A stretch of 64,000 nt of DNA from the NCBI GenBank assembly GCA_025544715.1, contig GCA_025544715.1_4109.2; one strand, given 5' to 3'. Positions within the stretch are counted from its first letter, which is position 1. Every line of letters begins with the position of its first letter. This stretch comes from Escherichia coli. Its GTDB lineage: Bacteria; Pseudomonadota; Gammaproteobacteria; Enterobacterales; Enterobacteriaceae. This document shows, one piece after another, positions 62,177 to 62,680 of this stretch. Under the pieces are notes generated by a model, which made no database searches, had not been told where the DNA came from, and saw only the letters and a list, made by a program, of their open reading frames with translations. The translations under genes were made by a program, and so were the position numbers.

Positions 62177-62680
62177 TTATTTTACTTTGACAGTACAGGT
62201 TACCTTTTTACCTTGGAACTCGACTTTTTGAACATATGAAACGTTACCCAAACGATTAACGAATGATTCCATTGCATTAATATTTGCTTGAATTACTGAT
62301 GCATTAGTTCCACGTCCTGAAGTTTTCATTACAATATGTACATGTTTTCCTTCATCAAGGAATTTTTCAGCACTTTTTGCTTTAATCTGCAAATCATGCT
62401 CTTGTGTACCAAAGTTGAATTGAATCTCTTTAATACTCACGGCATTTTGTCGTTGTTTTTTAAGAGAAGCTTTTTCAGCTTGCTTCAACTCATATTTGTA
62501 TTTGTTAAGATCTGTGATTTTGACAGCAGGTTCATCACCTGCACCAATAACTACCAAATCCAATCCTTGATTTTCTGCTAAAGTAAGTGCTTTAGAGATT
62601 GCCATGACCTCACTTGCACCTTCCGTAACAAGACGTACAGTTTTTGCGGTGATTTCGTTATTGGCAATAATAGATTTCAT
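62177..62680 (-). CDS. infC: translation initiation factor IF-3 homologue (167 aa)
   Basis: [32 protein letters not shown]...EPAVKI and [18 protein letters not shown] align to bacterial IF3 along its length. Confidence 0.7.

Follow-up and report, generated by a model that had tools for sequence, protein, structure and literature searches.

An intact translation initiation factor IF3 gene in a 121Q-like jumbo phage of Escherichia coli

The IF3 gene and its product

The window analysed here, i.e. the whole stretch of 64,000 nucleotides, contains on its minus strand an open reading frame (ORF) for a protein of 167 amino acids, which starts with ATG and ends with a TAA stop codon that is counted in the coordinates. 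Position and length agree exactly with those of a first-pass annotation, which had given no strand. The gene and the parts of its product are located as follows:

62177..62680, minus strand: coding sequence of the IF3 homologue (ORF listing, Pfam, TIGR00168, PHROG; product identical to gp47 of phage 121Q)
62468..62662, minus strand: IF3 N-terminal domain, residues 7-71 (Pfam PF05198, residue mapping, model)
62444..62509, minus strand: Lys-rich inter-domain linker helix, residues 58-79 (AlphaFold helix H58-79, gap in the BLASTP alignment)
62186..62440, minus strand: IF3 C-terminal (30S-binding) domain, residues 81-165 (Pfam PF00707, model, Foldseek, residue table)

In the first-pass annotation the ORF had been described as a phage-encoded IF3 homologue with N- and C-domains, and a profile search against IF3 N and C models had been proposed as a check. 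This description is upheld by Pfam, TIGR00168, PHROG, the PDB search, the AlphaFold model and Foldseek. In the profile search both domains score above the curated cut-offs: IF3_N (Pfam PF05198) reaches 58.9 bits against a cut-off of 26.9, with residues 7-71 on profile positions 2-69 of 70, and IF3_C (Pfam PF00707) reaches 51.8 bits against 34.8, with residues 81-165 on positions 1-84 of 86. The full-length infC equivalog model of NCBIfam, TIGR00168, gives 110.4 bits (cut-off 60), and residues 1-167 align with positions 1-167 of the 168 in PHROG 9787, 'translation initiation factor' (E = 6e-71). When the PDB was searched with the ORF, only IF3 chains were returned, the best being 8jsg_A, an IF3 sequence of the E. 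coli type (E = 3e-17), and 5lmn_X (E = 4e-17). The ORF contains neither a frameshift nor an internal stop, and this intact frame speaks against the frameshifted pseudogene that had been named beforehand as an outcome contradicting the identification, just as the profile scores speak against the other such outcome, a lack of similarity to IF3 profiles.

The AlphaFold model, for which 21 homologues were used as input (mean pLDDT 84.5), has the canonical IF3 topology of an alpha/beta N-domain, a single long helix (58-79) and a beta-alpha-beta-alpha-beta-beta C-domain. The predicted N-domain consists of strands E14-19, E22-27, E41-46 and E52-56 and helix H28-38, and the predicted C-domain of E83-89, H94-109, E113-119, H127-143, E147-155 and E159-166. 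The 22 residues of the linker (58-79) are predicted as one helix, which is basic, rich in Lys and almost unvaried within the phage clade. In a Foldseek comparison with the PDB the first 25 matches were all IF3, with TM values of 0.71-0.77 to full-length IF3 models, including IF3 bound to the 30S subunit (0.71 for 5lmn_X and 0.75 for 9ss1_F3). TMt was 0.84 with the isolated C-domain 1tig; for the N-domain it was 0.76 with 1tif and 0.81 with 6o6d.

These matches lie far outside what chance would produce, and it is practically certain that the product of 62177..62680 is a member of the IF3 family. The ORF is an intact, functional-looking IF3 gene of the bacterial type, and the E. coli jumbo phage that carries it is 121Q-like (Asteriusvirus).

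Distribution and earlier annotation

Over 3 kb around the gene the nucleotide identity to Escherichia phage 121Q (NC_025447, 348.5 kb, genus Asteriusvirus) is 99.3%, and that to PBECO4, phAPEC6, Sharanji, SP27, slurp01 and others is 97-98%. The same 167-aa sequence, with 100% identity, occurs in at least 11 deposited phage genomes, among them 121Q, whose gp47 (YP_009101641.1) is labelled 'translation initiation factor IF3' by GenBank and RefSeq alike. The novelty implied by the first-pass annotation has to be withdrawn, as the records of 121Q and many relatives already label the gene as IF3 and several papers discuss it (PMC5259590, PMC7824862, PMC11895373). Buttimer et al. (2017) identified CBB_318 as IF-3 and listed homologues in GAP32, 121Q, PBECO4 and RaK2 (PMC5259590), and Iyer et al. 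(2021) considered the IF3 and KTSC proteins of 'group 2.2' jumbo phages as a possible support of phage translation or as ribosome rescue factors (PMC7824862). According to the 2025 Sharanji paper the function of IF3 in phages 'cannot be definitively stated' (PMC11895373), and our full-text literature searches found no biochemical or genetic study of any phage IF3. The phage IF3 gene is thus real but already known, having been annotated since the 121Q record and noted in papers since at least 2017; the additions made here are modest and comprise the conserved promoter, the AUG start as opposed to AUU, the conserved operon partners and a comparison at the level of single residues.

A tblastn search matched 95 of 50,697 phage records, a number that is an upper bound because it includes two tiny fragments with Listeria and Enterococcus phage labels, OR847555.1 (2,454 bp) and PQ520322.1 (2,093 bp), which share about 27% identity with the query and look like host infC DNA. 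The matches come mainly from jumbo or huge phages, in agreement with the first-pass statement that few phages encode translation factors and that these are mostly very large. The Rak2-like assemblage is represented as a whole, with phages of Escherichia, Klebsiella, Salmonella, Erwinia, Yersinia and Serratia as well as Cronobacter phage GAP32, Pectobacterium phage CBB and Xanthomonas phage XbC2. Outside this group they occur in a 349-kb Vibrio phage, the 490-kb Agrobacterium phage Atu_ph07 and metagenomic huge phages.

E. coli IF3 and the phage protein share only 38% identity over 120 residues (BLASTP), which marks the latter as an old, diverged lineage that was not recently taken from the host. 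An exhaustive search returned a smooth continuum of metagenomic representatives with 35-51% identity and pointed to no particular donor lineage.

Neighbouring genes

Three genes around the IF3 gene recur in its relatives:

62750-62944, minus strand: 64-aa ORF, PHROG 15132 (unknown function), directly upstream of IF3
61618..62163, minus strand: ClpS-like gene, 181 aa (Pfam ClpS 24.7 bits, cut-off 23; PHROG 15940)
61001..61546, minus strand: KTSC-domain gene (Pfam KTSC 51.9 bits; synteny)

The order Dda helicase, structural protein, 64-aa ORF, IF3, ClpS-like, KTSC and, further on, topoisomerase II is common to 121Q, UE-S1, EC.P1, Turkey5, K64-1, GAP32, XbC2 and the Vibrio phage, so that IF3 keeps its place throughout the Rak2-like jumbo phages and as far out as a jumbo phage of Vibrio. 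Every relative examined, the Vibrio phage among them, has the 64-aa ORF directly in front of IF3. IF3 heads a conserved string of three genes, of which the KTSC gene is the third. The ATG of the ClpS-like gene lies 13 nt past the IF3 stop codon and is provided with its own Shine-Dalgarno-like motif (AAGGA); the two genes are apparently co-transcribed and their pairing is kept across the relatives.

The ClpS domain covers residues 74-144 of the ClpS-like protein, which carries an additional N-terminal part of about 70 aa. The match to ClpS is marginal (Pfam 24.7 against 23 bits, PDB E about 0.2) and the alignment to E. coli ClpS is weak; in relatives the gene is labelled 'ATP-dependent protease' or 'ClpS'. 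When aligned by eye with E. coli ClpS, D35, T38 and E41 are kept and the changes N34D, D36P, M40A and H66N are seen. Given the changes at these four positions, binding of N-degrons may be altered. Among these genes the KTSC gene is under the tightest constraint (dN/dS 0.013-0.032); the GenBank record of 121Q labels it 'DnaJ-like'.

In Vibrio phage 2.275.O (3983-5786) the corresponding genes are IF3, bS21 (rpsU), a ClpS/bL12-CTD-like gene and KTSC. In Atu_ph07 IF3 directly follows a Clp ATPase gene, and a small heat-shock protein, thymidine kinase and ClpS are found within about 4 kb of IF3, across the origin of the record. IF3 is repeatedly linked with Clp or proteostasis genes, which may reflect inherited synteny.

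Expression signals and timing

The IF3 gene is preceded by a promoter and a ribosome-binding motif of its own, and the following signals were located on the minus strand of the window:

62725..62753, minus strand: sigma-70 promoter TTGACA-17 nt-TATAAT, 12/12 consensus match
62691..62694, minus strand: Shine-Dalgarno-like GGAG, 10 nt upstream of the IF3 ATG
9678-9706, 11040-11068, 28060-28088, 30467-30495 and 62725-62753, all minus strand: perfect sigma-70 sites (consensus search)
58620-58644, minus strand: strong terminator-like hairpin (10-bp stem and T8) immediately behind the 263-aa virion structural gene

The promoter lies 45 nt upstream of the gene, giving a predicted 5' UTR of about 38 nt, and its -35 hexamer overlaps the TGA stop codon of the upstream 64-aa gene. 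In the window TTGACA-N17-TATAAT occurs five times without a mismatch, always on the minus (coding) strand, against 0.09 sites expected by chance (an enrichment of about 55-fold), and these five sites are probably the strong promoters of the phage for the RNA polymerase of the host. Both hexamers of the IF3 promoter are retained in an alignment with EC.P1 and Turkey5 despite divergence of the spacer, and GAP32 and XbC2 have near-consensus promoter elements at the corresponding position. An element containing GGAG is present at the Shine-Dalgarno position in 10 of 10 aligned relatives. Neither an RNA leader of the infC/L20 type nor any other Rfam element was found near the IF3 gene, where the search gave a single sub-threshold chance match to a snoRNA.

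RpoD-like promoters characterise what is presumed to be the early region of the related phage CBB, and the CBB stretch with IF3 carries a divergent promoter type which has been linked to DNA-synthesis genes (PMC5259590). We infer that the IF3 gene would be expressed early or in the middle of infection. In the main-text table of the phAPEC6 virion mass spectrometry, gp161c, gp162c and gp167c are present, whereas gp165c (IF3) and gp164c (ClpS-like) are absent. As far as this table goes, the absence of IF3 between flanking proteins that are present indicates that it is made after infection and not injected; an IF3 packaged in the virion was rejected on the same table.

Downstream of the IF3 promoter no terminator-like site was found on the minus strand before 58644..58620, so the IF3 transcript may run over two virion-protein genes. 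The hairpin at 58620-58644 is the first such site past the promoter that has no coding sequence under it.

Selection and functional residues

Compared with 121Q and phAPEC6, the IF3 gene shows no non-synonymous and 4-5 synonymous differences (121Q: 4). Where distances are unsaturated, comparison with UE-S1 gives a dN/dS of 0.073 and comparison with EC.P1 one of 0.082; with Turkey5 and K64-1, at a dS close to saturation, the value is 0.15-0.17. The neighbouring genes range from 0.01 to 0.16, a constraint similar to that of IF3. The gene is under strong purifying selection, and its reading frame is unbroken in all relatives examined. Nothing was found in favour of a captured host gene in decay or of a wrongly called ORF, and either is scarcely credible, considering the dN/dS of 0.07-0.08, the intact frame, a position conserved across phage genera, the low identity to host IF3 (38%, i.e. 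no recent capture) and a conserved promoter and Shine-Dalgarno element of its own. Decay is refuted by dN/dS together with these conserved signals.

For a comparison of functional residues (E. coli numbering), 28 members of the phage clade were mapped against 113 other IF3 representatives, a background that consists of the nearest representatives of the query, is biased accordingly and may include other phage proteins. R25 (R16 in the window), Y75 (Y63), D106 (D96), K110 (K100) and R133 (R123) are kept in 26-28 of the 28 clade members. R66 (K54 in the window), R112, R116, R129 and R168 are replaced by K in the phage protein, and the background sequences, too, have K there most often or at least frequently; Y107 is replaced by L, the majority state in the background. 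The changes at three further positions stand out from this background. R131 corresponds to S121 in the window, with V, A, S or T in the clade and R or K in 99 of the 113 background sequences; R99 corresponds to N89, with T, S, N or A in the clade and R in 57 of the 113; and the replacement of Y70 by L is specific to the Rak2-like clade, the background having mostly Y or F.

Petrelli et al. in 2003 reportedly assigned roles in 30S binding and fidelity to R99 and R131. The basic side chains of these two C-domain surface positions, which had been used as a membership test, are missing from the phage protein; the positions are not invariant within the IF3 family, and their loss lowers confidence in an identical activity, not in membership. 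R25 is invariant in bacteria and contacts the elbow of the initiator tRNA, and an R25A mutant restores neither growth nor fidelity (PMC9723500). The fidelity mutant infC362 is Y75N, and release of RbfA fails in it as well (PMC7145577).

Considering the changes at R131, R99 and Y70, the activity of the phage IF3 could be altered either quantitatively or qualitatively. It is possible, though rather unlikely, that the protein binds the host 30S subunit with a relaxed or shifted scrutiny of start codons, initiator tRNA or mRNAs and in this way favours phage messages, as had been proposed in the first-pass annotation. Such an altered specificity would fit the clade-specific loss of the basic residues and the Y70L change, all the more as Atu_ph07 keeps R99 and K131, and would also fit the deep divergence from host IF3 (38% identity); moreover, raised levels of IF3 and IF1 are reported to shift mRNA selection in cold shock (PMC6511846). 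It is at odds with the conservation of R25 and Y75, both of which are tied to fidelity, and Y107L, R112K, R116K and R66K lend it nothing, since they represent the majority state among IF3s.

The conserved Y75 bears on another possibility as well, namely that the phage factor mobilises ribosomes by freeing 30S subunits from vacant or hibernating 70S ribosomes or by displacing assembly or silencing factors such as RbfA, which would allow replication in slow-growing, cold or stationary hosts. IF3 is known to displace RbfA and to license 30S subunits under stress (PMC7145577), Y75 being needed for this release; the related phage Sharanji is reported to encode a ribosome-associated protein of the S30EA/HPF type besides IF3 (PMC11895373), and the ribosome rescue or translation support proposed by Iyer et al. 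(PMC7824862) points in the same direction. No HPF-type gene was found, however, among the ORFs at 59-64 kb or among the annotated 121Q products of the matching region, and by sequence this role is inseparable from that of a canonical supplementary IF3, the difference being one of emphasis among canonical IF3 activities. As the main role we regard it as unlikely.

Start codons and tRNA genes

According to the first-pass annotation, a phage IF3 might bias initiation towards unusual start codons. This idea finds no support among the 132 annotated coding sequences of the matching 121Q region, 120 of which start with ATG, 10 with GTG and 2 with TTG, a count that is limited by gene callers allowing these three codons only. 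A Shine-Dalgarno core of at least 4 nt is found upstream of 82 of the 132. Both the ordinary start codons and the recognisable Shine-Dalgarno cores of most genes argue against a factor of altered specificity.

The window also contains a group of tRNA genes:

21718-24660, minus strand: tRNA cluster (Asn, Met, Ser, Arg, Ser, Gly), six tRNA genes (ARAGORN)

The slot order of this cluster is as in 121Q. For three annotated tRNA genes of 121Q, tRNA-Leu(taa), tRNA-Ser(act) and tRNA-Met, BLAST gave no match in the window, and tRNA-Thr is represented by fragments only (29 + 20 nt, at about 19395-19441). As the ORFs flanking the missing genes are about 92% identical, the tRNA cassette seems to be a variable region that is prone to swaps. 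The Gly tRNA (24588-24660) is an ARAGORN call that stays below the Rfam gathering score.

In the tRNA-Met(CAT) gene at 21816-21894 on the minus strand, G1:C72 is paired and the anticodon stem (AACGA/TCGTT) is devoid of three G:C pairs. This gene was considered as a phage initiator tRNA and rejected; it would encode an elongator Met or an Ile2 (lysidine) tRNA. As the tRNA-Met of the window is not an initiator, a phage-specific initiator tRNA partner for IF3 is lacking in the window, a further point against altered specificity.

The ordinary Shine-Dalgarno and AUG signals of the phage messages also bear on the very improbable case that the protein is an inhibitory decoy, which would occupy the IF3 site of the host 30S subunit non-productively and thereby shut off host translation. 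In favour of this, R131 and R99 are lost, and PMC11895373 cites other jumbo phages for which host ribosomes are a target from the very start of infection. Such a decoy would, however, block the phage mRNAs as well, because these use the same ordinary signals, and both domains, the linker and R25 are under purifying selection, none of which a simple blocker would need.

A possible role in the infected cell

The reading we favour, with moderate confidence, is that of a canonical IF3 which would supplement or replace the host factor on the host 30S subunit. After infection, and probably early, the sigma-70 RNA polymerase of the host would transcribe the gene from its perfect promoter, and an ordinary Shine-Dalgarno sequence and AUG start would drive its translation. 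The set point of host infC depends on the repression of its AUU start codon by IF3; with an AUG start, the phage gene would escape this autoregulation. The phage protein would then bind the host 30S subunit at the normal IF3 site, and the net effect would be a higher IF3 activity per ribosome, by which 30S subunits are kept dissociated and available. Initiation on the flood of canonical Shine-Dalgarno/AUG phage mRNAs might thus be faster and proofread. If the discrimination of start codons is normal, translation of host infC would be repressed and the host factor gradually replaced.

Several points weigh against a canonical supplement. The phage protein shares no more than 38% identity with E. 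coli IF3, its basic side chains at R131 and R99 are gone, and Y70 has become L. The timing of its promoter is predicted, and the IF3 region of CBB has a promoter of the DNA-synthesis type, not of the early type. In addition, E. coli already has IF3, and the benefit of a further canonical copy is assumed.

A more far-reaching proposal takes the string of IF3, ClpS-like and KTSC genes, together with bS21 in the Vibrio relative and the Clp ATPase in Atu_ph07, as a takeover module. A specificity-shifted IF3, devoid of the basic residues at R99 and R131, would replace that of the host on the 30S subunit, the ClpS-like protein would redirect or block the ClpAP proteolysis of translation components of host or phage, and initiation would be reprogrammed for phage mRNAs. 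We consider this distinctly improbable.

If the phage IF3 works on host ribosomes, and especially if it works differently, it would show how jumbo phages gain control of translation initiation, and it would also provide a natural IF3 variant for studies of start-site fidelity. Handles for experiments are offered by the conserved sigma-70 promoter, by the AUG start that would escape infC autoregulation, by the conserved operon partners and by the absence of R99 and R131, which is specific to the clade.

Comparison with known systems

The closest known counterpart is gp47 of 121Q, with an identical protein, the same gene order and four synonymous differences in the gene, which places the window in the same species-level group. 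Annotated orthologues exist in PBECO4, phAPEC6, Sharanji, SP27, slurp01, RaK2/K64-1, GAP32, CBB, Serratia phage BF, Yersinia phage fHe-Yen9 and Xanthomonas phage XbC2; those from other genera are 52-90% identical to the IF3 of the window and have the same gene order.

With E. coli InfC (180 aa) the phage protein shares the two domains with a Lys-rich linker, the residues R25, Y75, D106, K110 and R133 and the predicted fold of 30S-bound IF3. It differs in the absence of the 9-residue N-terminal tail, in a linker that is longer by two residues and in the changes of R99 to N, R131 to S and Y70 to L, at an overall identity of 38% over 120 aa. At the level of the gene, the phage start codon is ATG, whereas that of host infC is, as is generally known, AUU. 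In place of the enterobacterial infC-rpmI-rplT arrangement, the phage IF3 is followed by the ClpS-like and KTSC genes, and no leader of the infC/L20 type was found. The AUU start and the rpmI-rplT operon are features of the host locus and not of the protein family.

More distant counterparts are the full-length IF3 proteins of Vibrio phage 2.275.O, Atu_ph07 and metagenomic huge phages (LR7565xx), all from phages of more than 340 kb and 33-38% identical. Vibrio phage 2.275.O has the same neighbourhood as the window, with bS21 (rpsU) inserted after IF3. Atu_ph07 IF3 keeps the bacterial-type R99 and K131, unlike the Rak2-like clade, and lies among Clp and topoisomerase genes, its direct neighbour being the Clp ATPase and not ClpS. 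The tRNAs of phages and the bS21 of the Vibrio phage are likewise auxiliary parts of the host translation machinery that are carried by large phages; IF3 differs from them in being a trans-acting initiation factor, neither a tRNA nor a constituent of the ribosome.
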